From Burkholderiaceae bacterium (GTDB lineage: Bacteria; Pseudomonadota; Gammaproteobacteria; Burkholderiales; Burkholderiaceae_D), in NCBI GenBank assembly GCA_963666295.1, contig OY762707.1, positions 570,726-634,725 of the forward strand: DNA of 64,000 nucleotides, in the 5' to 3' direction. The translations under genes and the position numbers were made by a program. Each line of letters opens with the position of its first letter. Position 1 is the stretch's first letter. Positions 9,396-33,700 of this stretch are shown piece by piece. A model generated the notes under the pieces. It was given only the letters and a program-made list of their open reading frames with translations. It made no database searches and was not told the origin of the DNA.

Positions 9396-9691
9396 ATTTC
9401 TTGGTATATGGAGTCAATAAAATTCGCAAGGCGCGAAGAACTTCGGCTTCCGCAAAAGCCCATAAGTCAAATGGGTCGCGGTCTTGCTAACGTTGCGTGA
9501 GAAAAAGCTGCGGCAATGCTGTCATTTGCACACGCTGCTCCTGAGAGTGCGCTGAACAAAGCCGCCCGGGTGCAACAAAACGCGTTGCGCTCTTTTTGAC
9601 AGTATCAGAGATAAAAATCTGCATGCTAACAAAGTGAACAGAAAAGACCGAGTGACGATTATAGCTCGTTGCTCCCCGTTTATTTAAGGGA

Positions 9692-14377: not shown

Positions 14378-14818
14378 CTTTTATCTCCCGCCTAATAATT
14401 AAGCAGGACTAGTAAAACACCTGGGTCAATTTTGAATCAGCACAACACCCTTAAATGGGTCAATTTTCGGTCAGCGGCAACATACATAATGTGTACACAC
14501 GGCATTCAGCAGACAAAAATAGGCCGCCAAATTCATTTGAAAATTTCTACCGTGGCCAATTTCAGGGTGAGCATGGCCATTCCCATGCCAACAAAACAGT
14601 CGATTGACATGGGTGCAGGCGAAACCTATACTCCACTTGCAAGTATTAGCAATAAGTTTCACTAACGGCCATCGTGTTAGCGCACTTTGGTCGTTTTTTA
14701 TTCAAAGGTTGCCGTGTGCAGTCCTCCTTTTTTGTTTAAATAAATAATCACTCCCTGACCTCAGGGAAAGCGTCTTGGACTTACCTAATTAGTTACTTTC
14801 TTTTTCATTCCCTCCTTT

Positions 14819-16146: not shown

Positions 16147-16210
16147 GAAGAATGGACATTTGCATAAAGTTAGCCACTTCCTCGTGCGCTCATTGACTGC
16201 AACTCGGTCA

Positions 16211-17836
16211 GACTGTGTGAAAACACATTGATCGTGAAGCGCGAAGTGCTTGGTCCAGTCAGATTCAGCAGAAATTATAGGTCAGGATTATGAAAAAAAG
16301 CGGCCATCATGCCGCCATGGCCTCCATTAGTCTGGAAACTCCCATGATTTTCATGACTCGCTTCATGTTATAGGCCAAAACGTGCAAACTCATCTCAGTT
16401 CCTGCACCTTCTAGCCGCCTGGTTAGAAAGTGATTTGCTCCCATCCACTCTTTTATGGTGCCGAAGGGGTGTTCAACGGTGCGTTGCCTAATACGCATAA
16501 GCCCCGGATTCAGGTCGAGCCGCCTTTGCATCGCCTCAAGGGTTGATTCGTGGTCATAACGACTAACGCGACGATTTTTGCTGGTCGTGCATTTGTCGCG
16601 AATTTCGCAACTGGGGCACTCAGAACTCCAGTATTTATGAATTAATCCGCCACGTTCCTCCGTGGAGAACCGCCAAATCAACCGTTTGCCAGCAGGGCAT
16701 TTGTACTCACCAGCATTTGCATCGAAGATGAAGTCTTCCTTGTCAAAGCGCCCGTCAGCTTTCGCGCTGGATGTCGTCGACTTGGAAACAAGAGGCGTAA
16801 TTCCGTTTTGTTCACAGGCGACGATCTCTTCACCGTTGAAGTAACCGCGATCTGCAATAGCGTGCAAATCATTGGCTGCCATGGCAACCTTGGCTTGCAT
16901 TGCCATCTTGGATAACTGTCGACGGTCGCTGCCACTATTGGTAACTTCATGAGCCACTATCAGGTGGTGGGTTGTATCGACCGCAGTTTGAACGTTGTAA
17001 CCCACCAGGCCTCGACTTGTACTGGTGGCCATGGCGCGAGCGTCTGGATCAGTCAGGGAAATCTGTTTCCCTGGCACCTCTTCCAGATGTTCCTGAATCT
17101 GTTTGAACTTCTCCATCTGCGCCTTCATGGTCTTGATCTTCTCATTGAGGCGAGAGGTTCTTGCTTCGGCAATATCAGACTCTTGGCGATCTGCGGTATC
17201 GAGTTCACCCATGTAACGATCAATGCACTGGTCAATTTGCGCAAGGCGCTTGGCAACCTTGCCTCGCGTGAAATTGCGGTTATGCGCATTAACAGCTCTG
17301 AACTTGCAGCCATCGATTGCCACGACTGCGTTCGCAAACAAGCCGATTTCGCGGCAGAGAAACACAAACTGTCGGCACGCATTGCGAATTCCCGCTCCGT
17401 TATTCTTGCGAAAATCTGCAATTGTCTTGAAGTCAGGTGCCAGCCGATTAACCAGCCACATCAGTTCAAGATTGCGCTGTGCTTCGCGCTCAAGACGTCG
17501 CGTGGAATGGACACGATTTAGGTATCCGTAGATGTATATCTTCAGCAGTACCGATGGATGATAGGATGGCCGTCCCGTTTGCGCGGGGTTTACTCCGTCA
17601 AAGCCAAGTGACGCCAGATCGAGTGAATCAACAAATGCGTCTACTGCACGTACAGGATTGTCTTCAGTGACGAAATCATCAATTGATTCCGGAAGCAAAG
17701 TGACCTGACTACGATCTGCACCTTCTACAAATCTTTTCATGCCGCCTCCTGATAATAGCTACCACTATTATCCTAGAAGGATAGGCTCATCACACTCCAT
17801 TTTCACCTGTTTAAAACAGCGTTTTCACACAGCCAC
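16211..17836 (-). mobile_element. IS1182-family (IS5-like) insertion sequence, copy 1
   Basis: 1626 bp. Terminal IR core is CTGTGTGAAAAC at both ends. Flanked by the 6-bp direct repeat CGGTCA (16205-16210 and 17837-17842). The ends I compared are identical to copy 2. Boundaries +/-2 bp. Confidence 0.85.
16307..17740 (-). CDS. IS1182-family DDE transposase
   Basis: 477 aa. N-terminal MKRFVEGADRSQVTLLPESIDDFVTEDNPVR is typical for IS1182/IS5-like transposases. Protein is identical to the 28975..30408 product. Confidence 0.9.
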   Translation of the reverse strand: MKRFVEGADRSQVTLLPESIDDFVTEDNPVRAVDAFVDSLDLASLGFDGVNPAQTGRPSYHPSVLLKIYIYGYLNRVHSTRRLEREAQRNLELMWLVNRLAPDFKTIADFRKNNGAGIRNACRQFVFLCREIGLFANAVVAIDGCKFRAVNAHNRNFTRGKVAKRLAQIDQCIDRYMGELDTADRQESDIAEARTSRLNEKIKTMKAQMEKFKQIQEHLEEVPGKQISLTDPDARAMATSTSRGLVGYNVQTAVDTTHHLIVAHEVTNSGSDRRQLSKMAMQAKVAMAANDLHAIADRGYFNGEEIVACEQNGITPLVSKSTTSSAKADGRFDKEDFIFDANAGEYKCPAGKRLIWRFSTEERGGLIHKYWSSECPSCEIRDKCTTSKNRRVSRYDHESTLEAMQRRLDLNPGLMRIRQRTVEHPFGTIKEWMGANHFLTRRLEGAGTEMSLHVLAYNMKRVMKIMGVSRLMEAMAA

Positions 17837-18129
17837 CGGTCAAAGCAGCCTTTGGACTTGGCTACCGTGACCGGCAAAGTCCGCCCCAAAGCTGTCACAC
17901 ATGCAGAGTAGCACTAAAATCGCTCTTAGATTACGGTCGCCCAGAAGATCCTCAATTCAGACAATGTTCAAAAGAAACCCGAGCCAAAAACGAGCAAACA
18001 CCCAAAAATTAAGAAAACAGCTGATGCCTTAACTGCTGGTATGAATGCGTATTCAAATTCAATATCGAACAAACGGGAAACCAAAGACACCCCCTGTGCC
18101 TAGACAGCTTGGCTTACATTGCTGTGAAT

Positions 18130-18158
18130 AAAAAAAAGCCCACCCCGAAGGGTGGGCA
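18130..18158 (-). terminator. rho-independent terminator closing the minus-strand cassette
   Basis: On the minus strand, GCCCACCC-TTCG-GGGTGGGC followed by TTTTTTTT, 70 nt downstream of the 531-aa gene stop. Confidence 0.65.
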
Positions 18159-18227: not shown

Positions 18228-19823
18228 TCAACCCTCTTTCTGCTTCAGTTGGCCAACACTAATATCTAGACGAACAAGATGTCTTTCAATTTCGGCAGTC
18301 ATTTTGTCTGCGATGTCGATGATGTTGTCCGCACCTGATCGGATAGTTCTTGACTTGGTCCTGATGTCGTCCAGCCGGCTTACTTGTTTTTCAATCTGGC
18401 GAATGCTTTCTTCCATTTCATCAGTATTGACCGGCAATTCTTCTGCTTCTCGCACGCGAACTGAAATCGCTTTGGCGATTGAAATCGCACTTTGCAAAAC
18501 AATGTCAGTACTTTCGTCTTCCGCATCCCAGATAATCATGATGTCACGCCCGAATCGACTGATAGTCTCTAGATTGGCTGGAGCAGTACGCTTAGAGTGA
18601 ACGAATATGCCAATTTCTGCGAGACGATTCTTGCGTGCACTTTCGATTTCATCGAGACTTGCTTTAATGTTATAGGTCTGGTCTTCCTTGAATTCGACGA
18701 CAATTCTCGCTCCCGCTGCCGCACTATCTGGACTCAGAGTGATCACACTGTCGCCAACCTTTGCTCTTCCCACTGCCCCCGTTGTATGAGCCACAAATTC
18801 TGCAAAGTCTCCTGCTCTCATTGACATTCGTTCTATGACCTCAAAACCCTGTCTTTCAAAGTCCAAGCCATGGAGCGTTGAACGGGCAGCCTCTTCCTTG
18901 CGGATATTCATGGCATCCAGAGTTCGTCTAACCTCTTCTCGAAATGAACGATTGTCTTCTCCCTGCTTTTCAAGCACGCTGATCATTTCCCTGCGCAATC
19001 TCGCAAGAGCCGAGTTCTCTGCATCTAGCGAGAACTCCGTGCTTAGGTTCTTCTGTGTTTGTTCAACCTGACGTACCAAACGACTGAGTGCAGAGTCGTC
19101 GCTGTCTAGCGAGAACTCCTCAATCACTGTGCCAATTCTTTTGGAAAGACTTTCGGTTAAGTTTCCGTGCTTTTCAGTCAGTTCATTCAGCAAGCGCGTG
19201 AGAGCGCCCTCCTTATTATCGAGAGAAAACTCGCGCAACACTGCATCTGAACGCGTCTGGACGACTGTCTCAACACGCTCGCGCAACCCCTTTAGCAACT
19301 GGTTATCTTCTGTCGGCAGCAGAAGCTGGAGAAGTGGGCTGCCACTTCCTATGTGGTCCGTTAAGGCTTCATTCAATGTCTGGCGCGTTTGCCCGATCTG
19401 ATCGCGCATTACTTTTTCCAGTTCACCGTCGTTCTTGACTAGGCGATCAACACGCTCTGTAAAGCGTCCATCTTTTGGATCAAAATATTCCTTGAGCGTG
19501 GCAGAGATGCTTGATTCAGTCACCTGTTGAAAATGTCCAAGCTTTGCTGCCAATTCACTTAAAAGTCGCTCGCCTTCATTGCGAACTTTTTCGCTATCCA
19601 CAACACCCTGGGCCTGGCGCAAAGAAAGCACTCCGATGCGCAGGGCTTGCCGGATAAATTCGTCCCGTTGTCTACCTTGTGGGTAACTGATTAGTGCTGC
19701 CGCACTTTCAGGGTCAGTAATTTCGAGTTCAACCCTAATGCCGGACGTGGGTTCGGCATCATGATTTTGGGAGTTTTCAATGATCGTAGGAGCTACTGTG
19801 TGAGTCGTTTGCATACTGGACAA
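18228..19823 (-). CDS. repeat-rich coiled-coil protein with C-terminal PD-(D/E)xK-like core (RmuC/DUF2130-like architecture)
   Basis: 531 aa. Strong SD (AGGAGG) before the ATG. Three EFSLD-x3-4-SAL(T/S/A)RL repeats (aa 198-275) and a degenerate fourth at aa 111-129. Candidate nuclease core is GD(357)SV...IVVE(377)FK(379). Confidence 0.6.
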   Translation of the reverse strand: MSSMQTTHTVAPTIIENSQNHDAEPTSGIRVELEITDPESAAALISYPQGRQRDEFIRQALRIGVLSLRQAQGVVDSEKVRNEGERLLSELAAKLGHFQQVTESSISATLKEYFDPKDGRFTERVDRLVKNDGELEKVMRDQIGQTRQTLNEALTDHIGSGSPLLQLLLPTEDNQLLKGLRERVETVVQTRSDAVLREFSLDNKEGALTRLLNELTEKHGNLTESLSKRIGTVIEEFSLDSDDSALSRLVRQVEQTQKNLSTEFSLDAENSALARLRREMISVLEKQGEDNRSFREEVRRTLDAMNIRKEEAARSTLHGLDFERQGFEVIERMSMRAGDFAEFVAHTTGAVGRAKVGDSVITLSPDSAAAGARIVVEFKEDQTYNIKASLDEIESARKNRLAEIGIFVHSKRTAPANLETISRFGRDIMIIWDAEDESTDIVLQSAISIAKAISVRVREAEELPVNTDEMEESIRQIEKQVSRLDDIRTKSRTIRSGADNIIDIADKMTAEIERHLVRLDISVGQLKQKEG

Positions 19824-19873: not shown

Positions 19874-19896
19874 TGTGGCTCATATGGTGAGCCACT
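19874..19896. promoter_or_regulatory. 23-bp dyad operator, site B (TGTGGCTCATATGGTGAGCCACT)
   Basis: Lies in the 79-nt gap between the WYL gene stop and the 531-aa gene start. Aligns with sites A and C, sharing the invariant half-site GTGAGCCACT. Confidence 0.6.
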
Positions 19897-19902
19897 AAAA
19901 AT

Positions 19903-20889
19903 TTAGCTGTAAAGAGAAGCGGCTTTCACAAGCCTCTCCTTGACGGACTCACGTAGTGTTGCAGGCCCCAACACTTCCACATCGGGGCCAAAGCGCAAAA
20001 TTTCGAGCATTAGCTCCCTCGGATCGCTATATGGAATCTCCAGCAAATAGCTGCCATCATCAAGTTCAGTGGTTTTCTGTTCAGGATGCCACTGCTCAGC
20101 TCTAACCCATCTGGCTTGAACAGGGGAAAACTTAAGCTTGGCCCATTCACGATCCTTGCCTGAAAAGATGCCAAAATCCGGCCCAAGCATTTCATCCACT
20201 TTTTTAGCTGCTACGCGTTTAGCTGACTTACTAATTTGATGCGCGCTTTCGATAGCGTCTAGTGCGAAAATCCTCATGGCATCAGCTTGGTGGCACCAAG
20301 CAAATAAATACCAGTTTTCCCGATAGTGAACGAGTCGCTGAGGCGAAACGATCCTTTCGCTTCGCTTGTTGCTGCTTCTGGTGAAATACTGCATGGAGAG
20401 TCGAGTCTGCTTAACCGCAGCTTGTGCAACCGTCTCAAAATATTGTGAGTTGATGCGCTTGCTTGCAGAAGCAAGGATGCGTACACGTGATCGAATGTCT
20501 GCTGGATCATCGTTAGCTGCGCTCATTGCCACAGTAATCCGTGCAATCAGTGGTTGTAGATGCTCAGTCAGCAAGCCAGGACCGATATGCCTGGCAAGTT
20601 CGTCAATCATCAGAAGTGCGTAGATTTCTGAGGCGGTAAACCATGTCCTTGGCAACCCCAGTTTGCCTGACGACCACCCTTTGTCTGTCAGCACATATCC
20701 TCTTGGCGATTCGGAATCTCCTCGTTGCCAATCAATTGGAACCTGCATCTGATCTCGCAATAAGGCAAGATCACGTCTAAATTGTGTTCGCGAAATTTCC
20801 AGTTCGGCAAGGAGAGTATCCCGTGGTACGGGATACTTGCTTGACTCCAAAATTGAAATGAGATTGTTTAGGCGAACGAATTGGCTCAT
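19903..20889 (-). CDS. HTH-WYL-domain transcriptional regulator (BrxR/CapW-like)
   Basis: 328 aa. N-terminal wHTH (RDTLLAELEISRTQFRRDLALLRDQ). WYL-domain signature SPQRLVHYRENWYLFAWCHQADAMRIFALDAI. Start overlaps the upstream stop (TAATG). Confidence 0.8.
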   Translation of the reverse strand: MSQFVRLNNLISILESSKYPVPRDTLLAELEISRTQFRRDLALLRDQMQVPIDWQRGDSESPRGYVLTDKGWSSGKLGLPRTWFTASEIYALLMIDELARHIGPGLLTEHLQPLIARITVAMSAANDDPADIRSRVRILASASKRINSQYFETVAQAAVKQTRLSMQYFTRSSNKRSERIVSPQRLVHYRENWYLFAWCHQADAMRIFALDAIESAHQISKSAKRVAAKKVDEMLGPDFGIFSGKDREWAKLKFSPVQARWVRAEQWHPEQKTTELDDGSYLLEIPYSDPRELMLEILRFGPDVEVLGPATLRESVKERLVKAASLYS

Positions 20890-21806
20890 TATTTTTTAGG
20901 CACTCTGTAGTCGAATTCGCGTGGATCAAGATCTTCATCGTTTGGCGCCCACCCCTCTAGGACGAAGACTTCGCCACCTGATGGTTCCCACGTATCGCCG
21001 TTCCGCTGCAACAAGATATTCCGGACAATAAATAGATCGGAACGCCATGCGTTTTCCCTTGCATCTTTTACCTCATTGCGCGTCAGAATCACCGTATCAG
21101 CATTGCCAGTTGATCCTTTTACTTCAACGTGAACAACTAATTCCTTTTTCTGGCAAAGCAGATCGAAGGGTTTACCGTATTCTTCAACGGAGAATTCCTG
21201 ATGAAGATAGTACTCCTTTGCTTTACTTACTGCGTAATTTTCGGTAATTCGCTTTTTTTCTGGATCATCTTGTATACCAGCGCTTCCAGCAGCAACGTTA
21301 CCTGACGACTCCTCCTGAATCTCACTATTTTGAGGAAGATCTAGATAGTCCCTTAATTTGTCTGCCGATGCTTTTGTCAGTTGAAATGGGATGCGAAATG
21401 CTTGGCGATCAATCCCCCCACTCTTATCTAGGTTTGGTTTTTTTCGTTCGCCCTTAGATGTAATCAGATCAAGGTTTTTGGCCACCTCAAGGTCGACCAG
21501 CTTTGCTGCTCTGAATTTATCTATGGCTTGCTTCTCTGCAATGAAGTACAAGTCTTTGTTAATAATATTGGTTCTACCCAATAATTTTTCGGCCTCAACT
21601 TTTAAAACTGGCCCGTCACCTACGACCAGCCTTCCTCCAATATAGAGATTGCCTTTCTTTACTGTAATAACAAATACTTCATCTCCTTTTACAAAGGTCG
21701 AGAACGGCCGCTTATTCTCGCCTGCAATATAGTCGACAGCATCGTCATCAGATTTTGCTCGTTGATCCCAAGTATCGTTATTCCATAGAAATGTATAAGA
21801 AGCCAT
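20889..21806 (-). CDS. hypothetical protein; C-terminal DUF3883-like PD-(D/E)xK module, N-terminal beta-rich domain
   Basis: 305 aa. The C-terminus, KPFD(215)LLCQKKELVVHVE(228)VK(230)GSTG...LTRNEVKDA...DLFIV, matches the D...ExK...NE...ly.V pattern I recall for DUF3883. The N-terminal domain is unassigned. Confidence 0.55.
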   Translation of the reverse strand: MASYTFLWNNDTWDQRAKSDDDAVDYIAGENKRPFSTFVKGDEVFVITVKKGNLYIGGRLVVGDGPVLKVEAEKLLGRTNIINKDLYFIAEKQAIDKFRAAKLVDLEVAKNLDLITSKGERKKPNLDKSGGIDRQAFRIPFQLTKASADKLRDYLDLPQNSEIQEESSGNVAAGSAGIQDDPEKKRITENYAVSKAKEYYLHQEFSVEEYGKPFDLLCQKKELVVHVEVKGSTGNADTVILTRNEVKDARENAWRSDLFIVRNILLQRNGDTWEPSGGEVFVLEGWAPNDEDLDPREFDYRVPKK

Positions 21807-21807
21807 C

Positions 21808-24800
21808 TTAATCCTTTGACTGTTTAGAAATTATGGAGAAATGATTTAATGTGTTAATCAAGTGAATGTCTTCAGGTGTGTCGGCTCTGGCATCAAGCAA
21901 CCTTTCTGTTCCTAAAACCAAAGACATACATCGAGCCCTTGATACAGCGACATTGAATCTATTCTTGCTAAATAAAAACCCAAGGTTACGAGGCATCAGT
22001 GAATCATTAGATGTAGTCATTGAAACAATCACGACCTGCGCCTCCTGTCCCTGAAATTTGTCGACAGTTCCTACGCGTGCTCCCTTAGGCAAGGTGCGTT
22101 TAAGCAGGTTCACCTGCATGTTGTATGGTGCAACGATGAGAATGTCTTCTAAAGTCATAGGATGGACAACACCTTTTCCATCACGATAGCTCTGGGTAAG
22201 CAAGTTATCTACTAGTTCGCTAACATCTGCCGCTTCTTCTTCGCTTCGCTGTGAGCACGCATCGTGATCGACCGGGACATAGCGAATTCCCGTTGGTTTC
22301 AGCGCCGGGTGTGCACCATCGTTTAGAACTAAAGCTTGTTTAAATGTCGATTCGTCTGACTTCAGCCGCGAGTCATATATGGCACCAGAAATAAACTGGC
22401 AGACGTCCGGATGCATTCGGTACGTGGTCGCAAGGAAAATTCCGCGATCAGGTGAAATCGTTGCTTCGCCATCAAGCAGATAATCAAGAGCCGACTCACC
22501 ACTTCGACCAGGATGAACTCCTTGGATTGGCTGCCCTAACTGCATCTGGTCACCTAACAAAACAAGGTTACGAGAACACATCCCCATCGCTATGGTGTTT
22601 GCAAGCGATACCTGTCCAGCTTCATCAATGAACAAGTAATCGTATTCACCCCTAAAGTCTCCCCTTGCCAAAAGCCATGCCGTTCCAGCTAGCAATTGAG
22701 GCGGTGGGTCTGCTTTGGCTATTGACTGACTGCTTCCCCAGTTCTCTATAAAATCGCTTTCAACGTGATGCTCATCTGTCGACACCTTCTTGATGCCGTA
22801 GTAGCTGGCACCTTTCTCTTTCATTCGCTTGTCGACAGCGCTTAGAAGGTTGTTGATCGCTTTATGGCTATTTGAAGATACGGCCACGCGCTTGCCAGAC
22901 TTCAGAAGTTCGGCAATCAAGTGCGATCCCGTATAGGTTTTGCCTGTTCCCGGAGGACCTTGGATGAACAGGTAGGTATTCTGCATCTTTTCTACAGCAG
23001 AAATTGTTTGTGCAAGCGGATCACCATCGAGGTCAACAATGGGTTCTCCTGAATTGATTCCTTCAATATCAGGCGCTTTTCTCGTGAGGTAATCCAATAC
23101 AGCTTTGTATTGCCCACTGCCGGCAATTAGGGAATCTGCAAAATCAAATAGTGCATCTTGCATTACCGTTGAATTTATCGGTGCACCTGTTGAGATTGAA
23201 AATGACCCTGACTCGTCCCCCGAATCAGTCCGTATTTCCAAGGTGACGGTGCAGTTATCCTCATCAATATCTACTACGTTCACATCCTTCAGAGTATCCA
23301 GGCGCTTCGCATACCCACCGGCCTTCACCTTAAAATCCTGCTCCGGATAGTGATAACGAAATACCTCGAAACGCTTGCCAGACCCGACATACTCAGGGGA
23401 ATGAAGGCCAGCAATAACTTCCGGATCTTCAATCAACTCTTCAAACTCACCATCTTGGCGTTCGAAGATATTCCACCATGCTGGTTTGGCAGCACGCCGG
23501 TAAAAATCCAATAGTGAGTCGACCAGTTTAGCCAGTTCTTCATCAAGCCCAAGGTTGACTGGGCTAGTGATCAATTTCTCATGGTATTCCTCGAGAGTTT
23601 TTTCGTGATCAAGCGTTTTGTCGGATTTTGTCTTTGCTGGCTTTTTAGCTGCTACGGCGTCAATAATGGCTTCTGAAAACCACGACAATTCTTCCGGCCT
23701 CATCGTCAGTAGCCATTCTCGCAACTGCCATGTCGAGCGACAGTCGTCCTCGTTATACTCCCGTATGGACTCAAGCAATTCTGGATCTTGTGTTTCACGC
23801 CAGCGCTCATAAACCACGATGCTATCTCCAGCATTTGTGACCTCTGCATCCCGCTTATCGCTGTAAAAGGCCTCGACGGCTTTTATTGAATAGCTAGGCT
23901 TTGAAATGCGTAAGCCCTCACGCACTACTTTGTATAAATCTACTAAACGACTTTCACGTAATAATTGATCAACTGCTGACTCTTTGACCCCATGCAAAGT
24001 CATTAACTTCTTCAAAGCCGTATTCTCATAATGAGCGTAGTGATAGATATGCATGGCAGGATACTTCTCCCTGCGATCCATCACGAAATCCATAAATTCG
24101 ATGAAAGCTTGGCGTTCCTGCTCTCGATCATGCGCCCAGAAGGGCTTGAATACTGGCTTTCCTGCATCGAAGTAGTACACACCGAATAGATATTCCAATC
24201 CACCGTCCTGCATTGGATCGCCTTCCATATCGAAGAACAGATCACCTGCATCCGGTTTGGGGAGTCTCGCAAACCCGCGCATTTCGTCTTCGTGAACAGG
24301 CAAAAGAACTACCTTTTGCTCGCCAGTCTCACGCTCATGAACCTGGAGCTTTGCTTGTTCGCGTAATTTCGTGAGTGTCTGATCCGCCAGCTTGGGCACG
24401 TCCATGTTTTCTTGTAGTTGTGCGAGCTGAGCAACCGTTTTGATGTCAGCCTGCTCCAACCTTGCGATCTGCTGGCGTGTGATATTGGCTACCGCTGACA
24501 AATGGTCATCTTCGATCCGTTTTGCGTCGCACCTTTCTTGCCAATGACAAAGTGAGCAATGGTCGCAAGGTACTGGATACGGTGGAGTGCCATCCGGGTA
24601 GGTTCCCAAAAATTCGACGAACCGGTCCAGAAGCTGCCTGTAGTAATACACGTAGTCAGCGACTCTGAAACTTTCACGCTTTCCGTTCCCCAGTTCGACA
24701 TGCATGTTTGGTGGGAGTTTTTCTGTCAGGTCAGACAACAGATCGGAATAAAAACAAAGCTGGAGAATGAATTTAGCCTTGGTCGAGCGTGCAAGCTTGG

Positions 24801-25197
24801 TATCTGCAACCTCATATTCCCATGCCTCTCCCTCATCATTACTGTCTGTGCGCAGGAGAAAATCAGCATTTCCAAGCATATTGCCGCGCTTCAAGGCGGC
24901 CTGATAGACAACCTTGGCACCGGTTTTCAGGGCGTCACTGGTTGCGCTGACACGCTGGTCAAGAGATAGTTTTTGGTCTATCTCAATGCAATCTTCGTAT
25001 TGGGTTTTTAGTTGCGCAAAAAACTCCGCTTCGTGCTCAAAGCCCTTTGCCTGAACCAGCTTGGATTGCTCATCATCCTCGGCTTTTTCCATTGGTGAGT
25101 CGAGGTGGAGGCGATCAAGCCATGTCCTGTGTGGGCATTCAGCGAAAAAGGTCAGGTCGCTTGCGGAAAACAGAATCTGGTTATTTATTTTTTGCAA
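21808..25197 (-). CDS. Cas4/RecB-like Fe-S nuclease + PolB-like (RNase_H_2) 3'-5' exonuclease + Upf1/DNA2-like SF1B helicase fusion (TM0106-family-like)
   Basis: 1129 aa. TTG start 6 nt after GGAGGTGA. Nuclease: C21, D112 (NADFLL), D132-T-K134, QLCFY, then C211-x2-C-x2-C-x5-C. Exonuclease: DLFFDMEGDP and EYNEDDC. Helicase: GPPGTGKT (K753), FIDEAGQ, LLGDQMQL, TTYRMHP, DKFQGQEAQVVIVS, FNVAVSRAR. Confidence 0.85.
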   Translation of the reverse strand: MQKINNQILFSASDLTFFAECPHRTWLDRLHLDSPMEKAEDDEQSKLVQAKGFEHEAEFFAQLKTQYEDCIEIDQKLSLDQRVSATSDALKTGAKVVYQAALKRGNMLGNADFLLRTDSNDEGEAWEYEVADTKLARSTKAKFILQLCFYSDLLSDLTEKLPPNMHVELGNGKRESFRVADYVYYYRQLLDRFVEFLGTYPDGTPPYPVPCDHCSLCHWQERCDAKRIEDDHLSAVANITRQQIARLEQADIKTVAQLAQLQENMDVPKLADQTLTKLREQAKLQVHERETGEQKVVLLPVHEDEMRGFARLPKPDAGDLFFDMEGDPMQDGGLEYLFGVYYFDAGKPVFKPFWAHDREQERQAFIEFMDFVMDRREKYPAMHIYHYAHYENTALKKLMTLHGVKESAVDQLLRESRLVDLYKVVREGLRISKPSYSIKAVEAFYSDKRDAEVTNAGDSIVVYERWRETQDPELLESIREYNEDDCRSTWQLREWLLTMRPEELSWFSEAIIDAVAAKKPAKTKSDKTLDHEKTLEEYHEKLITSPVNLGLDEELAKLVDSLLDFYRRAAKPAWWNIFERQDGEFEELIEDPEVIAGLHSPEYVGSGKRFEVFRYHYPEQDFKVKAGGYAKRLDTLKDVNVVDIDEDNCTVTLEIRTDSGDESGSFSISTGAPINSTVMQDALFDFADSLIAGSGQYKAVLDYLTRKAPDIEGINSGEPIVDLDGDPLAQTISAVEKMQNTYLFIQGPPGTGKTYTGSHLIAELLKSGKRVAVSSNSHKAINNLLSAVDKRMKEKGASYYGIKKVSTDEHHVESDFIENWGSSQSIAKADPPPQLLAGTAWLLARGDFRGEYDYLFIDEAGQVSLANTIAMGMCSRNLVLLGDQMQLGQPIQGVHPGRSGESALDYLLDGEATISPDRGIFLATTYRMHPDVCQFISGAIYDSRLKSDESTFKQALVLNDGAHPALKPTGIRYVPVDHDACSQRSEEEAADVSELVDNLLTQSYRDGKGVVHPMTLEDILIVAPYNMQVNLLKRTLPKGARVGTVDKFQGQEAQVVIVSMTTSNDSLMPRNLGFLFSKNRFNVAVSRARCMSLVLGTERLLDARADTPEDIHLINTLNHFSIISKQSKD

Positions 25198-25263: not shown

Positions 25264-25286
25264 AGTGGTTCACATAGTGAGCCACT
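25264..25286. promoter_or_regulatory. 23-bp dyad operator, site A (AGTGGTTCACATAGTGAGCCACT)
   Basis: 67 nt upstream of the helicase-fusion start, in the divergent intergenic region. Nearly perfect 10-3-10 inverted repeat. Confidence 0.6.
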
Positions 25287-25315: not shown

Positions 25316-25338
25316 AGAGGCTCATTCCGTGAGCCACT
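25316..25338. promoter_or_regulatory. 23-bp dyad operator, site C (AGAGGCTCATTCCGTGAGCCACT)
   Basis: Same intergenic region, 48 nt upstream of the ATG at 25387. Shares GTGAGCCACT and the GGCTCAT left arm with site B. Confidence 0.5.
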
Positions 25339-25386
25339 TACTTATTTATAGTCACATCATGTGAACAAAATATGGAGGTGAATTCA

Positions 25387-25665
25387 ATGAGCCAATTAAC
25401 CCAGCATGCCATGACCCGTATGCAGCAGCGCGGCATAAAAGAGCTAACGCTTCAACACCTGTTGCAGCATGGCGCAAAGACTCATGATGGCAGGGGATGC
25501 CAAATTGTTTATTTCAACAAGCAATCGCGAAAACGCCTACAAAAAAGCTTTTGCAATGAGGCATTCAAGCAACTTGAGAAGCAAATGGATGCTTATGCCG
25601 TAATTTCTGAGTTTGGCGATGTTGTCACAGTAGGCCACCGAACCAAGCGTATCAACCGTTACTAA
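25387..25665 (+). CDS. DUF4258-like small protein (putative toxin-type)
   Basis: LTQHAMTRMQQRGIKELTLQHLLQHG fits the DUF4258 pattern (HA..RM..RgI). GGAGGTG lies 6 nt before ATG 25387. The ORF-track start at 25372 sits inside that SD. Confidence 0.5.
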   Translation: MSQLTQHAMTRMQQRGIKELTLQHLLQHGAKTHDGRGCQIVYFNKQSRKRLQKSFCNEAFKQLEKQMDAYAVISEFGDVVTVGHRTKRINRY

Positions 25666-25674
25666 GGAGACTCC

Positions 25675-26190
25675 ATGGCGCTATTACTAGAAGGAATGAC
25701 TCTGGTATTTGAAAATGAAACACTTGAAGAGATGCACCCACTTGGCATCAAGGGATTCATATCGGAATGGAACAACGGGTCTTTCTGTACGGACGGCACG
25801 ATATCTAAATTGTCCTTTTTTGAATTTCAGGACGGATTTTGCGTACTTGCAGCCATGAAGGGTATGGGGTTGGCCATATCCACACGATACGCAGCCGATG
25901 TAGCTGTGTTTATGCATGATGGCAGCCCATGGTTACCCTGCTTGTGGCTAGAAACTGAAAAACACGTCGAAAATTACATGATGTGCTGGCATGTAACAAA
26001 CAAAGGGAGCAAAGCATTGGCTCCAGCATATTTCAAGAGAGGTGGCACATTAGCGCGCTTCCAAGGACTAACCATGGACGAGATAAACGATCGTATTTCT
26101 AGGGCGGGCGTCGAAAATGGATGCAGCATTTTCAAAGACGAAATATCTGGTCGAATTCTGTACGGTCCGAATCAACTCTGCAGACATTAA
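25675..26190 (+). CDS. hypothetical protein (possible partner of the DUF4258-like gene)
   Basis: 171 aa. AGGAG SD. Starts 10 nt after the upstream stop. No family recognised. Confidence 0.5.
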   Translation: MALLLEGMTLVFENETLEEMHPLGIKGFISEWNNGSFCTDGTISKLSFFEFQDGFCVLAAMKGMGLAISTRYAADVAVFMHDGSPWLPCLWLETEKHVENYMMCWHVTNKGSKALAPAYFKRGGTLARFQGLTMDEINDRISRAGVENGCSIFKDEISGRILYGPNQLCRH

Positions 26191-27485: not shown

Positions 27486-28115
27486 TTGCTAGAAGAAGCT
27501 GAAGAAGCATCTGTCATTTATTCAATACAATACGGTCTGATTCTGACAGTTCCACGTGGTGATTACAGTATTGAAAGTTTGCGTTCTTTACTAAGGGCAT
27601 TTGTACTGCTTGGAAGGCCAAAACAAGTAGTTGGCTTAGATCTGGCAGGCCATGAAAGTCGCGAGAACATATCTGAACTGGTCCCACATTTTATGAGGGC
27701 GAAGAAGGAATTTGGGCTTGGGGTTACTATTCACGCAGGCGAAACGGGCATAATTGAAAATGTCACACAAGCCGTTTTGGGCTTTGGCGCAGATCGAATT
27801 GGGCACGGAACAGCGGCCGCAAAATGTGTTGAAACTATGGCGCTGCTTCGAGAGCACGATGTTTGTCTGGAAGTTTGTCCAATAAGTAACTATTTGACCG
27901 GCGCAGTACCCAATGGAGAGGCACATCCATTGAATGCATTTGTTGAGCATGAAGTGCCGTTCGTTATTTGCTCAGACAACCCTGCTCGTCATGCGCGGGG
28001 ACTCAATGCGGACTATTACGAGTTTATTCAAGAAACGGGGCGGTTTGATTTGCTGGATGATATGTACTCAAAGCAGTCGAAGTACTCTTTTCTCGATTTC
28101 AGCAGAATAAACTAA
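27486..28115 (+). pseudogene. adenosine/AMP-deaminase-family fragment lacking the N-terminal ~115 residues
   Basis: Contains LDLAGHE, TIHAGE, ADRIGHG, CPISN and SDNP motifs of the adenosine deaminase superfamily. The frame opens only at 27447 and the HxH zinc motif is missing. Upstream DNA has stops in that frame. Confidence 0.55.
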
Positions 28116-28150: not shown

Positions 28151-28741
28151 TCAAGCCCACCTGTCAAAAATTCTGTCGGTCTGTTTGTCGAGTTCAAACG
28201 AGCGCGATGTAAATCCAACGAGACTGTCGCCAAATGCCTCAATTGCAAGAAGCAGAATTTCGCGTGCAAGGGATGTTGAAATTGAATTCTTTGGTGAACA
28301 AAGCGCCCCTTTCTGCTGCTCAACATAAAGCGCCGTTTCCCGAAGAGCGATCATCTCCCCCCGTTTTGCTAGATCAATAAGCTCATTCATCCGGGCTTCA
28401 CCGATCGCCACCTGTAGCCTACTTCCCATAGCAACCGTTGGGCCGAGAGCCAAACGGTGTTTTGTCCCGTGTTTGTATAGTGGATCTTTCGATCTTTTAA
28501 CTGGATTCACCCCGCTTCTGAACGTGCCCACATGGACTTTAGAGGTTTCTTCAAGTGCAGTAATGCTGAGAAAGAGCGCAGTTGCGTGCGAACCCATAGC
28601 TAGAAGTGTTGACGCATCCTCAAGAAGTTGAACTATGTGCTCACAGGCTTCGTCAAATTCCTCTGTTGTGTTGCATAACTTCTCTCCGACAGCGGCAGCG
28701 TCTTTAACGGCAAGCCACCACTCTATGGACGAATTGATCAT
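28151..28741 (-). CDS. AbiV-like (HEPN-type) abortive-infection protein candidate
   Basis: 196 aa. LLEDASTLLAMGSHATALFLSITALEETSKV matches the AbiV-family pattern (A..L...g.y..A.fL.i.A.EE.gK). The size matches AbiV. Confidence 0.5.
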   Translation of the reverse strand: MINSSIEWWLAVKDAAAVGEKLCNTTEEFDEACEHIVQLLEDASTLLAMGSHATALFLSITALEETSKVHVGTFRSGVNPVKRSKDPLYKHGTKHRLALGPTVAMGSRLQVAIGEARMNELIDLAKRGEMIALRETALYVEQQKGALCSPKNSISTSLAREILLLAIEAFGDSLVGFTSRSFELDKQTDRIFDRWA

Positions 28742-28878
28742 GTTGAGGAATTAAATTGTTATGGTCGAAAGTTTGCATATTAGCATTGTCGAATGAGAAG
28801 AAAATCCAGATCTGAACGACAGCTTCATTGCTGGGTTAAGGCGGTGATGGTTGCCAAGGTAAAGGTCTGCTTTGGCCG

Positions 28879-30504
28879 GTGGCTGTGTGAAAACGCTGTT
28901 TTAAACAGGTGAAAATGGAGTGTGATGAGCCTATCCTTCTAGGATAATAGTGGTAGCTATTATCAGGAGGCGGCATGAAAAGATTTGTAGAAGGTGCAGA
29001 TCGTAGTCAGGTCACTTTGCTTCCGGAATCAATTGATGATTTCGTCACTGAAGACAATCCTGTACGTGCAGTAGACGCATTTGTTGATTCACTCGATCTG
29101 GCGTCACTTGGCTTTGACGGAGTAAACCCCGCGCAAACGGGACGGCCATCCTATCATCCATCGGTACTGCTGAAGATATACATCTACGGATACCTAAATC
29201 GTGTCCATTCCACGCGACGTCTTGAGCGCGAAGCACAGCGCAATCTTGAACTGATGTGGCTGGTTAATCGGCTGGCACCTGACTTCAAGACAATTGCAGA
29301 TTTTCGCAAGAATAACGGAGCGGGAATTCGCAATGCGTGCCGACAGTTTGTGTTTCTCTGCCGCGAAATCGGCTTGTTTGCGAACGCAGTCGTGGCAATC
29401 GATGGCTGCAAGTTCAGAGCTGTTAATGCGCATAACCGCAATTTCACGCGAGGCAAGGTTGCCAAGCGCCTTGCGCAAATTGACCAGTGCATTGATCGTT
29501 ACATGGGTGAACTCGATACCGCAGATCGCCAAGAGTCTGATATTGCCGAAGCAAGAACCTCTCGCCTCAATGAGAAGATCAAGACCATGAAGGCGCAGAT
29601 GGAGAAGTTCAAACAGATTCAGGAACATCTGGAAGAGGTGCCAGGGAAACAGATTTCCCTGACTGATCCAGACGCTCGCGCCATGGCCACCAGTACAAGT
29701 CGAGGCCTGGTGGGTTACAACGTTCAAACTGCGGTCGATACAACCCACCACCTGATAGTGGCTCATGAAGTTACCAATAGTGGCAGCGACCGTCGACAGT
29801 TATCCAAGATGGCAATGCAAGCCAAGGTTGCCATGGCAGCCAATGATTTGCACGCTATTGCAGATCGCGGTTACTTCAACGGTGAAGAGATCGTCGCCTG
29901 TGAACAAAACGGAATTACGCCTCTTGTTTCCAAGTCGACGACATCCAGCGCGAAAGCTGACGGGCGCTTTGACAAGGAAGACTTCATCTTCGATGCAAAT
30001 GCTGGTGAGTACAAATGCCCTGCTGGCAAACGGTTGATTTGGCGGTTCTCCACGGAGGAACGTGGCGGATTAATTCATAAATACTGGAGTTCTGAGTGCC
30101 CCAGTTGCGAAATTCGCGACAAATGCACGACCAGCAAAAATCGTCGCGTTAGTCGTTATGACCACGAATCAACCCTTGAGGCGATGCAAAGGCGGCTCGA
30201 CCTGAATCCGGGGCTTATGCGTATTAGGCAACGCACCGTTGAACACCCCTTCGGCACCATAAAAGAGTGGATGGGAGCAAATCACTTTCTAACCAGGCGG
30301 CTAGAAGGTGCAGGAACTGAGATGAGTTTGCACGTTTTGGCCTATAACATGAAGCGAGTCATGAAAATCATGGGAGTTTCCAGACTAATGGAGGCCATGG
30401 CGGCATGATGGCCGCTTTTTTTCATAATCCTGACCTATAATTTCTGCTGAATCTGACTGGACCAAGCACTTCGCGCTTCACGATCAATGTGTTTTCACAC
30501 AGTC
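28879..30504 (+). mobile_element. IS1182-family insertion sequence, copy 2 (inverted relative to copy 1)
   Basis: 1626 bp, same IR core. Flanked by the 6-bp direct repeat TGGCCG (28873-28878 and 30505-30510). Confidence 0.85.
28975..30408 (+). CDS. IS1182-family DDE transposase
   Basis: 477 aa, identical to the 16307..17740 product. Confidence 0.9.
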   Translation: MKRFVEGADRSQVTLLPESIDDFVTEDNPVRAVDAFVDSLDLASLGFDGVNPAQTGRPSYHPSVLLKIYIYGYLNRVHSTRRLEREAQRNLELMWLVNRLAPDFKTIADFRKNNGAGIRNACRQFVFLCREIGLFANAVVAIDGCKFRAVNAHNRNFTRGKVAKRLAQIDQCIDRYMGELDTADRQESDIAEARTSRLNEKIKTMKAQMEKFKQIQEHLEEVPGKQISLTDPDARAMATSTSRGLVGYNVQTAVDTTHHLIVAHEVTNSGSDRRQLSKMAMQAKVAMAANDLHAIADRGYFNGEEIVACEQNGITPLVSKSTTSSAKADGRFDKEDFIFDANAGEYKCPAGKRLIWRFSTEERGGLIHKYWSSECPSCEIRDKCTTSKNRRVSRYDHESTLEAMQRRLDLNPGLMRIRQRTVEHPFGTIKEWMGANHFLTRRLEGAGTEMSLHVLAYNMKRVMKIMGVSRLMEAMAA

Positions 30505-30605
30505 TGGCCGAGCAGCTGTCGTAAGTCGTATGGCAGGTTTTAGATCATTTCAGATTTATAGTGCGGGTATACAGCGCCACCAAGCTCTCCCATTTTGAAA
30601 AACTA

Positions 30606-30746: not shown

Positions 30747-33700
30747 CTAACCACAACTTCCAATTGCACCACAAGCCGTACAGAAGTCGCAGCCATCCTT
30801 GCGAATCAAGGCCATGTTGCCGCATTCACGGCACAGTCGGCCGTGCAACAATGGCGCTGGTTTGGCAGCGTGTTTCGGATCTTCCGTCACAACACCCATG
30901 CTGATTCTTGGCATGCCCTCTTCATTCAGAATACCAAGCATCGCATAACGGTGAATGACTAACTGAGCAATGTAGGCGACGGTGGATGGGTAGCTCGCCA
31001 TTTTTTCGCTGCCTGGCACACGCGCAAGAAAATCGCCGCGTGGCTCGGCATAGTTCAACAGCTTGCGCAATTTCATGCCGATCCATGCTGGGTCAACCAC
31101 ACGCATATCTACACTGAGCAGCTTGCACAAGCCATCCAATGTGCGCGGATGCCCTCCGGTCAACCCCATGCTGTATGGTCGGCGTGTACCGTCCGGCATT
31201 TCCAGTTCCTTGAGCATCAGCACAAATTCATCATCCGTCGAAGGGTTACGTACATCAGCCACCCATGCCAGCGTGCCATCCGTGCCCGTTTTTGGCTCAT
31301 GCGGCGCAAAGAGTGCGTCCAACACTGGGGTTTGGTCATTCTCTTCGTAATCCAGGGCGCCCAGCTGGTTGTAGCGCCATTTCACGAGTTTTGCCAATGC
31401 AGCAGTTGCGCTCGGCACTTGCACCATTTCGCCATTTGGCGGCATCGGCATGTAAAACGGATCGCCATAAGCTTGCTCCAGCATCGTGAAGCGCTTGTTC
31501 AGCCAACCCCTGTCATTCGCACGCATGTCACTGGAAAGCGTCTTGGCAATCGCATCCAGGCCACGCGGCGGCTGACCGCCCAGCACCCAGACCTCAAACG
31601 GAATACCCCCATGATCCGAGACCACCACCGCGAATTCACCTTGCGGCGTCTGAATTTGCTCACTGACCCAACCGGACGCGCCTGCAGGCAAACCGGGACG
31701 CGACGGCCAGCGTAGCGATGCTAAGGGCGGTGACATCGCCACTTCTTTCAAAATCATGCGGCGATCTTGCTCGGACAAGGTGATTGGTTGTTCATTCACT
31801 GGCTCGGATTCAATGGCCGGCACCGAAAGCACGGCTCCCAGCACGCTATTCGGGCGATAGGTCGTGATGCCTTTCAAACCCTTGCGCCAAGCTTCCATGT
31901 AAAGATCTTTGAAATCCTCATACGGATAGTCTTCTGCCACGTTTACAGTCTTGGAAATCGCCGCATCAATAAATGGCGCCACATCTGCCACCATCAGCAT
32001 GTGGTCAATGGCAGATATCTCCAGTGCCGAAACGAAAGCAGACGGCAGATTACTGGTGTCGTGACCCATCGCACGATAAACGCGGTATGCGTGATCTTCT
32101 ACGGTGTAATCTTTCTTGCTGCCATCTGGCATGCGCTTGGTACGGTTGTAAAACCATGAAAACGCCGGTTCAATCCCGTTAGAAGCATTATCAGCAAACG
32201 CCAGCGAGATCGTGCCAGTCGGCGCAATCGAAGTCAGATGCGAGTTACGAATGCCATGCTCACGGATATCTGTTTTCAACGCTTCCGGCAGACGCGCGAC
32301 AAAATCGCTTTGCAGGTATTTTTCAACATCCAGCATTGGGAAAGCCCCACGCTCTTTCGAGAGTTCGACCGAAGCGGCGTAAGATGCGTCACGCATCATG
32401 CGCGCAATTCGGGCTGAAAGCCTGCGTCCTTGATCAGAGTCATAACGCACGCCCAGCATGATCAGCGCATCACCCAACCCGGTAAAGCCCAAGCCTATGC
32501 GGCGCTTCGCCTCGGCTTCTTTCGCCTGCGCCTCCAGCGGCCAGCGGGTTGCGGTCAACACATTATCCAGCATGCGTACCGCAATTCTGGTTACTTTCGC
32601 CATCAAATCAAAATCGAATGAAGGCTCTACTGAAAAAGGATCCTTCACATAAGCCGTCAGATTGAGGCTACCAAGACAGCAACAGCCGTAATCCGGCAAT
32701 GGCTGTTCACCGCAGTTGTGAATATATAAACCGTTTCCATCGAAAGCGTTAACTCCTGGAATCTGAACGTCATAAACCGTTTCCACACCATCACGCTCAA
32801 TTGATTCAACCACCGCTGTAAAACGTTCACGATTCAATGCTCGCTGATAACCGCCTAATAGCTTGACCAGCCTTTGTTGCTTGTCAACATCAGCAAAACC
32901 AATGCGCTCGTTGAAAAGCGCCAGGTTGTCTCCGGAAATATTCAACTCGTGCAAAACCTGCGTTTCGTAAAAGGCGCTTTCCCCTTTTCCGTCTGGCAGC
33001 AACTTCAGTAAAGGCTGATCCCCCTTGCGGTTGTTGTAAATGGTTGAGGCTATTCCGAAGCGCAATAGCATGCGCTGTACCCTTACGAGCGTTTCCCTGT
33101 TTGTCTGAGTAAGGCGCACACTTACCCCTTTTTTCTGGCAACCTTGTATGGAACCATCCGCATCAAACAAACCGCGCAGAAAACCGGCATGGAACTCAGA
33201 TGATGTTGCATCAAGCGCATCCGTCATCTGCTTTGCACCTAGACGCATGCCCATTTCATAGGCAAGATCACGCAAACCCGTACTCTTCATGCGGTATTCG
33301 CCACGGCCGGCAACCGCCGCAAACCCTGAGAAATCTGCACGTGTCCTGATTTCCTGCATCGCTGCTTCGGCAGCCAGCATCACACTGTTTTTTACAACCG
33401 CATCGGCACCATTTGCCTGCGCAGCCTTTTGCTTGTGCCAAACGCTTATCACAGCGCCATCTGCTTTCAATGTGCCATCACCCAAAAGCAAGCCCAACAA
33501 ATAGCCTTGTGCCTCAGTGTGTTGCCCCTCCCAACCCTGAACAGCGCGATGGTTGTGCAAAGCGACCCGATCTCCCGGTGCGAGTTGCCCTGCCTCAACC
33601 CATTCCACCTCCTGACGATAACGCGTTTGCGTCACCACGCGACGCACCAAATGGTTGGCTGTCAAGCGTAGCGAATAGCCTTCTCTGGTTTGCAAACGCA

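Follow-up and report, generated by a model that had tools for sequence, protein, structure and literature searches.

A TM0106-family nuclease-exonuclease-helicase encoded with a WYL regulator and putative operators: architecture, genomic context, and possible function

COG2251 was grouped with DUF83/Cas4 in the PD-(D/E)xK superfamily by Steczkiewicz et al. in 2012 (PMC3424549), and in 2014 Majorek et al. described its layout of a Cas4-like domain, an RNase_H_2 domain, and tandem AAA domains and predicted a 3'-5' exonuclease activity (PMC3985635). In RefSeq, the full-length proteins are labeled "TM0106 family RecB-like putative nuclease." The closest bacterial enzyme that has been tested is Bad of Geobacillus stearothermophilus (1245 aa), which consists of an Fe-S RecB-type nuclease, a central domain for which the authors report no detectable homology, and a superfamily 1B (SF1B) helicase; an Fe-S cluster, endonuclease activity on single-stranded DNA (ssDNA), and 5'-3' helicase activity were shown. 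The authors suspect that Bad belongs to a restriction-like system; its gene adjoins that of a type III-like methyltransferase (PMC7430649). A proven role in DNA repair exists for the exonuclease MrfB, which has a PF13482-type fold and cooperates with a helicase (PMC11194089). Transcription factors of the WYL type bind ssDNA (PMC11662680, PMC9186387, PMC11804915). Here, we analyzed a 64,000-nt stretch of DNA from a Burkholderiaceae bacterium (GCA_963666295.1, contig OY762707.1, positions 570,726 to 634,725), hereafter called the window, in which a minus-strand gene encodes a TM0106/COG2251 protein that is intact and ordinary for its family, in an operon with a WYL regulator gene and near palindromes that are candidate operators.

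Domain architecture and conservation of the TM0106-family protein

The open reading frame (ORF) of the TM0106-family nuclease-exonuclease-helicase extends over positions 21808 to 25197 of the minus strand and encodes 1129 amino acids. It starts with TTG, located 5 nt downstream of GGAGGTGA, a strong Shine-Dalgarno sequence, and the next in-frame start occurs only at codon 36. In 69 homologs, M1 and Q2 show almost no variation, and TTG is therefore the correct start. The NCBIfam model TIGR03491 (TM0106 family RecB-like putative nuclease) matched residues 11 to 496 over model positions 2 to 462 of 462, with a score of 345.5 bits versus a cut-off of 97.45 (E 5e-103). The Pfam domain RNase_H_2 (PF13482) covered residues 320 to 496 (E 5.7e-34, 117.9 bits), and AAA_11 and AAA_12 spanned residues 739 to 1098, or 733 to 1098 when AAA_19 and AAA_30 are included; AAA_12 scored 111.2 bits.

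Five segments can be delineated, all on the minus strand. Residues 1 to 230 (positions 24508 to 25197) correspond to a Cas4/DNA2-like PD-(D/E)xK nuclease according to TIGR03491, weak matches to Cas4 profiles, structure searches with Foldseek, and residue conservation; they contain D112, D132-T-K134, and the motif QLCFY at residues 146 to 150 (Q146-x3-Y150), as well as the cysteines C21 and C211-x2-C214-x2-C217-x5-C223. Residues 231 to 314 (positions 24256 to 24507) form a putative helical connector in the models, with helices at 241 to 249, 255 to 259, and 272 to 291 and conserved residues D231, H232, L233, Q281, and Q285; it is possibly helix-hairpin-helix-like. Residues 315 to 500 (positions 23698 to 24255) have a DEDDy 3'-5' exonuclease fold, as indicated by PF13482, Foldseek, and residue conservation, with the motifs DLFFDMEGDP (319 to 328) and YNEDDC (481 to 486). 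Residues 501 to 730 (positions 23008 to 23697) were assigned from the AlphaFold2 secondary structure and the Foldseek alignment to DNA2; they comprise stalk helices (525 to 589) and a β-barrel (594 to 669) which precede the motor, as in DNA2 and Upf1. Residues 731 to 1129 (positions 21808 to 23007) constitute an SF1B helicase core of the Upf1/DNA2 type with motifs I to VI, as judged from AAA profiles, relatives in the PDB, and invariant residues; the motifs are GPPGTGKT (747 to 754), DEAGQ (858 to 862), GDQMQL (882 to 887), YRMHP (926 to 930), DKFQGQE (1046 to 1052), and NVAVSRAR (1082 to 1089).

AlphaFold2 was used to model the whole chain and, separately, residues 1 to 505. The whole-chain model reached a predicted local distance difference test (pLDDT) value of 84 and a predicted template modeling score of 0.74, and its best Foldseek match was mouse DNA2 (5EAN, E 3e-25, approximately 1190 aligned columns), followed by IGHMBP2 and UPF1. 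The model of residues 1 to 505 had a pLDDT of 91.8; its first domain matched the type I-C Cas4 protein 8D3L_J (E 1e-5, TMt 0.67), the DNA2 nuclease (5EAN), and the Cas4 protein Pcal_0546 (4R5Q), and its second domain matched the exonuclease MrfB (8UN9) as well as proofreading domains from archaeal polymerases of family B, including 1QHT and 6WYA. According to the models, the protein has a DNA2-like layout composed of an "iron-staple" PD-(D/E)xK nuclease, stalk, β-barrel, and SF1B motor, into which a DEDDy exonuclease is inserted. A sequence search of the PDB with the full protein returned helicases only (IGHMBP2, UPF1, DNA2, and Sen1), and a 69-sequence profile of residues 1 to 505 found no PDB match even at E 10; the likeness of both nuclease folds to PDB entries is thus visible by structure search alone.

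Conservation was assessed in a set of 76 sequences consisting of the window protein and 75 full-length orthologs from genome contigs (38 to 65% identity). All 76 share the nuclease residues D112, D132, K134, Q146, and Y150, the DEDDy exonuclease residues D319, D323, E325, E391, D420, Y481, and D485, and the helicase residues K753, D858, E859, Q886, and R927, while D1046 is present in 75 and R1087 in 74 sequences, the remainder being gaps. The cysteines C21, C214, C217, and C223 are jointly kept in 67 to 68 of the 76 sequences and jointly replaced in the rest, and C211 is kept in only 53. This pattern is what would be expected for a four-ligand Fe-S site that was lost in one sub-branch, and we predict such a cluster for the window protein. 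Likewise, the conservation points to three intact catalytic modules under strong constraint, whose activities are predicted.

The initial annotation of the locus, made from the DNA sequence alone, had proposed a single ORF of 1129 codons with a TTG start and a strong Shine-Dalgarno sequence, encoding a fusion of a Cas4-like Fe-S nuclease, a DEDD-type exonuclease, and an Upf1/DNA2-like helicase. The ORF listing and the upstream sequence agree with this and place the ORF on the minus strand, which the annotation had not mentioned; each motif quoted in the annotation sits at its residue, and the profile and structure matches described above back the helicase and both nucleases. The proposed kinship of the N-terminal two-thirds with the TM0106 family was confirmed by TIGR03491. 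The proposal that the domain order is distinct turned out to be incorrect, since the protein is typical of a family that is already annotated and displays the usual full-length COG2251/TM0106 form, published in 2014 and named in RefSeq. More than 4900 homologs are present in a 90%-clustered database; the best 120 share the domain set, the full-length ones having approximately 1110 to 1180 residues, and most of the best 150 cluster representatives also fall in the range of 1110 to 1180 residues. Representatives of 50%-identity clusters numbered 7,768 at a threshold of E ≤ 0.001; tightening it to E ≤ 1e-30 left 1,728. In a collection of 185,579 species genomes, at least 431 places encode a relative, with a patchy spread over Beta-, Gamma-, and Alphaproteobacteria, Actinomycetota, Melainabacteria, Gemmatimonadota, Chloroflexota, and Eremiobacterota. 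The gene is furthermore carried by 74 plasmid records of PLSDB, with 60 full-length copies and 25 located on conjugative plasmids, and no full-length copy was found in the phages searched.

Operon structure, palindromes, and neighborhoods in relatives

The helicase gene heads a minus-strand operon of four genes, encoding the helicase, a NOV_C protein, a WYL regulator, and a 528-aa protein; the assignment follows from a 1-nt gap, an overlapping stop and start, and the presence of a single strong terminator, located behind the last of the four genes. The second gene (positions 20889 to 21806) begins 1 nt past the helicase stop and encodes, according to profiles and relatives, a 305-aa protein with an unassigned N-terminal domain and a NOV_C nuclease domain (DUF3883-type PD-(D/E)xK); its N-terminal 170 residues gave no Pfam match even at E 1. 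The start of the third gene (positions 19903 to 20889) overlaps the NOV_C stop, and its product is a 328-aa transcription regulator with HTH_11, WYL, and WCX domains, as identified by profiles. After a further 88 nt follows the gene for the 528-aa coiled-coil protein (positions 18228 to 19814), for which we assume the ATG at 19814 behind AGGAGG as start, the mechanically called ORF starting with TTG at 19823. The family of the 528-aa protein has ~2,900 matches and no Pfam model. The protein shows repeated "FSLD..SAL.RL" segments and a C-terminal VVEFKED that looks ExK-nuclease-like by eye only; a BLAST comparison with DUF2130 found no similarity. A terminator-like hairpin at positions 18138 to 18157, with 7 of 8 pairs being G-C and a T-run, closes the operon.

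The window contains three copies of the palindrome GTGGCTCA-N5-TGAGCCAC, none with more than one mismatch, and all copies are located in intergenic regions of the locus. The chance expectation is 0.25 matches at up to three mismatches, and none of 100 shuffled sequences reached three. The proximal copy, GTGGTTCACATAGTGAGCCAC (positions 25265 to 25285), may serve as the WYL operator of the helicase promoter; reading along the gene strand, 9 nt with TG at their end separate it from TAAGTT, a hexamer preceded by an invariant GTG and thus having the form of an extended -10 element. The distal copy, GAGGCTCATTCCGTGAGCCAC (positions 25317 to 25337), is the putative operator of a divergent unit and is followed on the plus strand by 9 nt and TATAGT. 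The third and perfect copy, GTGGCTCATATGGTGAGCCAC (positions 19875 to 19895), lies directly behind the stop codon of the WYL gene, ahead of the gene for the 528-aa protein, and is followed by 9 nt and CACAAT. Hence, the distance from the palindrome to the -10-like hexamer is exactly 9 nt at all three sites, in the direction of the downstream gene, which places the near half-site at about -22 to -29, and a -35 element is not apparent. A similar geometry is known from the PafBC hybrid promoters, tGTCgg-N10-tA-N3-T (PMC8635444). We regard the three palindromes as candidate operators which the WYL regulator would bind and from which it may either activate transcription by sigma adaptation or repress it by occluding the -35 region. 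The divergent unit on the plus strand (positions 25372 to 26190) was defined from profiles and relatives and encodes a 97-aa protein with a below-cut-off match to DUF4258 (positions 25372 to 25665) and a 171-aa protein (positions 25675 to 26190); since a palindrome precedes the DUF4258-like gene, the pair may resemble a toxin-antitoxin module and share the regulator of the operon.

The window's own clade comprises eight loci (L001, L081 to L085, L088, and L089) with 64 to 72% identity. A WYL regulator gene is located downstream of the helicase gene in all eight, its product being 60 to 65% identical to that of the window, and a small DUF4258-like gene (45 to 60% identity) lies divergently upstream in seven. 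The gene for the 171-aa protein is likewise conserved beside the helicase gene in this clade. The order of the block is DUF4258-like gene (divergent), helicase gene, nuclease slot, WYL gene, and a last-position gene. L001 and L081 to L084 keep the palindrome layout of the window, with two upstream copies and a third behind the WYL gene; in the more distant loci L003, L009, and L024, a single site immediately precedes the helicase start. The slot between helicase and WYL genes is occupied in four loci by an HNH_2 nuclease gene (L081, 9499 to 10404; L082, 9522 to 10703; L088, 8394 to 9329; L089, 6185 to 7105), L085 carries a NOV_C gene (9376 to 10251), and the slot is empty in L001, L083, and L084. 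The NOV_C protein of L085 shares 52% identity with the C-terminal domain of the window protein and has an unrelated N-terminal domain. In two close loci, an HNH_2 gene or fragment is found after the WYL gene instead. The varying small nuclease in the helicase-WYL slot resembles cassette swapping. The last position after the WYL gene alternates between DUF2130, a PD-(D/E)xK family (PMC3424549), and the 528-aa family, with homologs of the latter in L088 (10397 to 12016) and L089 (8114 to 9718). RmuC, which is built similarly to the 528-aa protein from a coiled coil and a nuclease, adjoins the helicase gene in more distant loci. In L083, from Aromatoleum petrolei, a second WYL gene (13516 to 14499) whose product is 40% identical to that of the window is located 3 kb downstream of the locus. 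A separate copy of the palindrome immediately precedes this second gene (13475 to 13495), which suggests a small regulator family sharing an operator.

For a broader view, 80 genome loci were clustered by their neighbors, 60 of them having at least 2 kb on both flanks. The sole frequent partner was an HTH-WYL-WCX regulator, encoded within 7 kb in 27 of the 80 loci, upstream, on either strand, or downstream; it is present in 19 of the 60 loci with sufficient flanks and adjacent in 10. No homolog of the NOV_C or 528-aa genes was found in the 80 loci, these genes occurring only in the close relatives L085 and L088 plus L089, respectively. The other recurrent neighbors are of the kind found in defense islands: McrB/McrC (10 to 12 loci), RmuC (7 loci, in 6 of them adjacent), ADP-ribosylglycohydrolase, RES, Dcm, an HD protein resembling dGTPase, and SNF2. 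When only the 114 nearest neighbors from 58 loci were classified with PADLOC and Pfam, WYL was found 10 times, RmuC 5 times, dGTPase and DrmD/HmaA/BrxH-like proteins 3 times each, and ZorD-like proteins, ZacC, and DpdE twice each. SIR2_2 and Tn7-like TniB/TniQ are also present in the surroundings of relatives.

Possible function and rival explanations

A mechanism for the protein can be sketched from what is known of DNA2, Bad, Cas4, MrfB, and the ssDNA-sensing WYL factors. The motor would load on a 5' single-stranded tail or flap, move in the 5'-3' direction, and unwind the duplex. The tracked strand would be threaded into the Cas4-like Fe-S nuclease and cut, as in DNA2 and Bad, while the displaced strand with its 3' OH would be digested by the DEDDy domain. 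With a motor, a nuclease on the tracked strand, and an exonuclease on the displaced strand, one polypeptide would destroy both strands from a DNA end, following the same logic as AddAB and RecBCD. Expression would be set by the co-transcribed HTH-WYL-WCX regulator, which presumably binds the three palindromes at approximately -22 to -42 of three promoters and, by analogy with CapW, BrxR, DriD, and PafBC, would respond to ssDNA arising from phage attack or DNA damage by raising expression. The swappable small nuclease (NOV_C here, HNH_2 elsewhere) may make the first cut and thereby provide the entry point for the motor.

We give an even chance to the reading that this DNA2-like 5'-3' motor, degrading both strands under an ssDNA-sensing switch, serves in defense against phages or mobile DNA. 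Defense appears to be the most likely role because of the accessory, patchy distribution of the gene, its copies on plasmids, the defense-island neighbors, and the cassette-like nuclease slot. The window itself also contains defense-like items, namely, AbiV, what is left of an adenosine deaminase of the CARF type, and insertion sequence (IS) copies on both flanks. An extended version of this reading, in which the DUF4258-like pair, the TM0106 nuclease-helicase, the small nuclease, the WYL regulator, and the coiled-coil protein (528-aa family or DUF2130) together form an unrecognized defense system, is put forward tentatively; here, the WYL protein as ssDNA sensor would switch on a dual-polarity DNA shredder, with the small nuclease making the first cut. 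This candidate block is not contained in PADLOC-DB 2.0.0.

Several points weigh against the main reading, mechanism and role together. The polarities of the helicase and the nucleases, the choice of DNA rather than RNA as substrate, and the Fe-S cluster are all deduced by homology. In the AlphaFold2 model, the motif VI region (residues 1064 to 1094) has pLDDT values below 50; this stretch includes the sequence NVAVSRAR, which is nearly invariant in the family, and the low values may be a modeling artifact. The best PDB matches of the regulator are PafBC (E 4e-19) and PafC (E 7e-15), and it is thus closer to an activator of DNA damage genes than to BrxR (E 5e-7) or CapW (E 5e-6), with DriD also behind, so that a repair role fits equally well. 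A WYL gene is lacking in the vicinity in about two-thirds of the genome loci, and some neighbors are housekeeping enzymes, although few among the 114 nearest. No model of PADLOC (2023; PADLOC-DB 2.0.0) covers the protein, its best matches, MkoA (E 9e-46) and MkoC (E 5e-27), being confined to the helicase core. Finally, a literature search for functional or experimental studies of the TM0106/COG2251 family, a large family present in many phyla and on plasmids under a placeholder name only, found none; a 2026 domain-centric defense screen makes no mention of Cas4, RecB, RNase_H, AAA_11, or AAA_12, and a phylogenomic study of Cas4 deals with UvrD-Cas4 fusions, not with this family.

The regulator's kinship with PafBC, together with the MrfB-like exonuclease and the RmuC neighbors, makes a DNA repair function a serious rival, albeit one we regard as rather unlikely. 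The protein would then be an enzyme of an SOS-independent damage response, induced by a PafBC/DriD-like, ssDNA-sensing WYL activator, which resects breaks or removes flaps or adducts, as MrfA/MrfB do on mitomycin C damage or as does eukaryotic DNA2, itself an enzyme of repair and replication. The position of the near half-site without a -35 element, like that in PafBC hybrid promoters, the resemblance of the exonuclease domain to a repair exonuclease (PMC11194089), and the recombination-linked nuclease RmuC as direct neighbor in 5 of 58 loci are in line with this explanation. The patchy distribution, the frequent location on plasmids, the variable contexts rich in restriction and abortive-infection genes, and the swappable nuclease gene inside the operon argue against it, as these features are typical of accessory defense genes and not of core repair genes. 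We consider it improbable that the gene is cargo of plasmids or mobile elements which serves the element, for example, in competition between elements, in excluding incoming DNA, or in processing replication or transfer intermediates, rather than host defense. The plasmid records, in particular those of conjugative plasmids, the toxin-antitoxin, integrase, and transposition genes nearby, and the position of the window locus between two inverted IS copies would suit such a role, but most copies are chromosomal, the clustering of neighbors revealed no conserved association with genes for relaxases, replication, or partition, and the idea overlaps largely with a defense function, from which it is hard to separate by sequence. 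Very improbable, in our view, is an Upf1/IGHMBP2/Mov10-like motor that, like MkoA, unwinds and degrades phage transcripts or RNA-DNA hybrids: MkoA and MkoC as best PADLOC matches and the RNA helicases IGHMBP2, UPF1, and Sen1 as closest PDB sequences speak for it, but all of these matches cover the helicase core only, both nuclease folds belong to families whose characterized representatives have DNA as their substrate (Cas4, DNA2, AddB, family-B polymerase proofreading domains, and MrfB), DNA2 is the best whole-chain match, and Bad, the closest tested analog in bacteria, is a DNA enzyme (PMC7430649).

As for the surroundings of the operon, an 11-kb segment holding the locus is bracketed by two inverted copies of a 1679-nt IS (positions 16195 to 17873 and 28842 to 30520) which are 99% complementary and each encode a 477-aa DDE transposase (DUF772, DDE_Tnp_1). 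Mismatches between the two copies cluster at the repeat termini. A composite transposon was considered and rejected, no target-site duplication being visible at the outer ends of both copies. Inside the bracketed segment, positions 28151 to 28741 of the minus strand encode a 196-aa AbiV abortive-infection protein (PADLOC AbiV, E 7e-65; Pfam HEPN_AbiV). A 209-aa ORF on the plus strand (positions 27486 to 28115) matches only positions 124 to 298 of 330 of an adenosine deaminase profile and positions 385 to 544 of 605 of the PADLOC CARF-adenosine-deaminase model and thus seems to be the truncated remainder of an adenosine deaminase of this CARF type. Beyond the segment, positions 30747 to 34736 of the minus strand encode a 1329-aa large subunit of ribonucleotide reductase into which an intein containing a LAGLIDADG homing endonuclease is inserted, the profile Ribonuc_red_lgC being split over residues 90 to 960, with LAGLIDADG_3 at residues 514 to 613 and a match to Intein_splicing.

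Comparison with known systems

With Cas4, the protein shares the fold and motifs of its N-terminal 230 residues, including the Fe-S cysteine pattern. Assignment as a CRISPR Cas4 was rejected: TIGR00372 scored 19.8 bits versus a cut-off of 65, and the domain is fused to two further enzymes. Pfam and PADLOC scans of the ORFs between positions 16307 and 34736 of the window found no cas1 or cas2, CRISPR arrays not having been searched for. Nhi and Mokosh represent the same concept of a helicase and a nuclease in a single chain, and MkoA and MkoC are relatives of its helicase core. The protein does not fall within the Nhi family, a possibility raised at the outset, as the PADLOC match to Nhi (E 0.0099, 12.6 bits) is restricted to residues 737 to 807 in the Walker A region. 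Mokosh was likewise rejected; the matches cover residues 849 to 1110 only, and the operon contains neither a PLD nuclease nor an MkoB partner.

MrfB/YprB and the proofreading domains of family-B polymerases (RNase_H_2, DnaQ-like) share the fold of residues 315 to 500 and the acidic residues. MrfB is a DEDDh enzyme and partners the SF2 helicase MrfA, whereas the last motif of the window protein, Y-x3-D, is of the DEDDy type and its exonuclease is fused to an SF1B motor. The BrxR-BREX, CapW-CBASS, PafBC, and DriD regulons resemble the locus in having an HTH-WYL-WCX regulator in or next to it and palindromes in promoters; the effector here is a TM0106 nuclease-helicase, which we did not find described for these regulators.

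DNA2 (5EAN, 5EAX, 5EAW) has in common with the window protein a Cas4/RecB-type nuclease with 1 + 3 cysteines, a β-barrel, and a C-terminal SF1B motor. The iron-staple pattern of DNA2 and Bad, with one N-terminal and three C-terminal cysteines (C-x2-C-x5-C), is present as C21, C214, C217, and C223. The identity to DNA2 is only ~15%, and a DEDDy exonuclease plus helical connector of ~270 residues is located between the nuclease and the stalk, whereas DNA2 has no further catalytic domain between nuclease and motor and Bad has its own, unassignable central domain. Moreover, DNA2 is eukaryotic, and the window protein is bacterial, accessory, and WYL-linked. Bad is also a bacterial single-chain protein of similar size with an Fe-S RecB-type nuclease, a central domain, and an SF1B helicase. 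Because the central position of the window protein holds a clear RNase_H_2/DEDDy exonuclease, which sets it apart from Bad as described, we did not file it under Bad; their neighbors also differ, a methyltransferase for Bad and a WYL regulator here.

With TM0106/COG2251, the match extends over the full model, the layout of Cas4-like, RNase_H_2, and tandem AAA domains is the same, and the length agrees with that of thousands of homologs. The protein itself shows no difference from this family, and the window copy differs only in its operon partners, the NOV_C nuclease and the 528-aa protein. What is new is the genomic context, i.e., the operon with the WYL regulator and the palindromes, the protein architecture having already been catalogued. 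The conserved putative WYL operators and the swappable nuclease slot outline a defined unit that could be cloned as a defense system or as an effector of an SOS-independent damage response. If the proposed mechanism is true, the protein would be the first single-chain bacterial enzyme uniting a DNA2-type motor with nucleases for both strand polarities and would represent a compact counterpart of AddAB or RecBCD.

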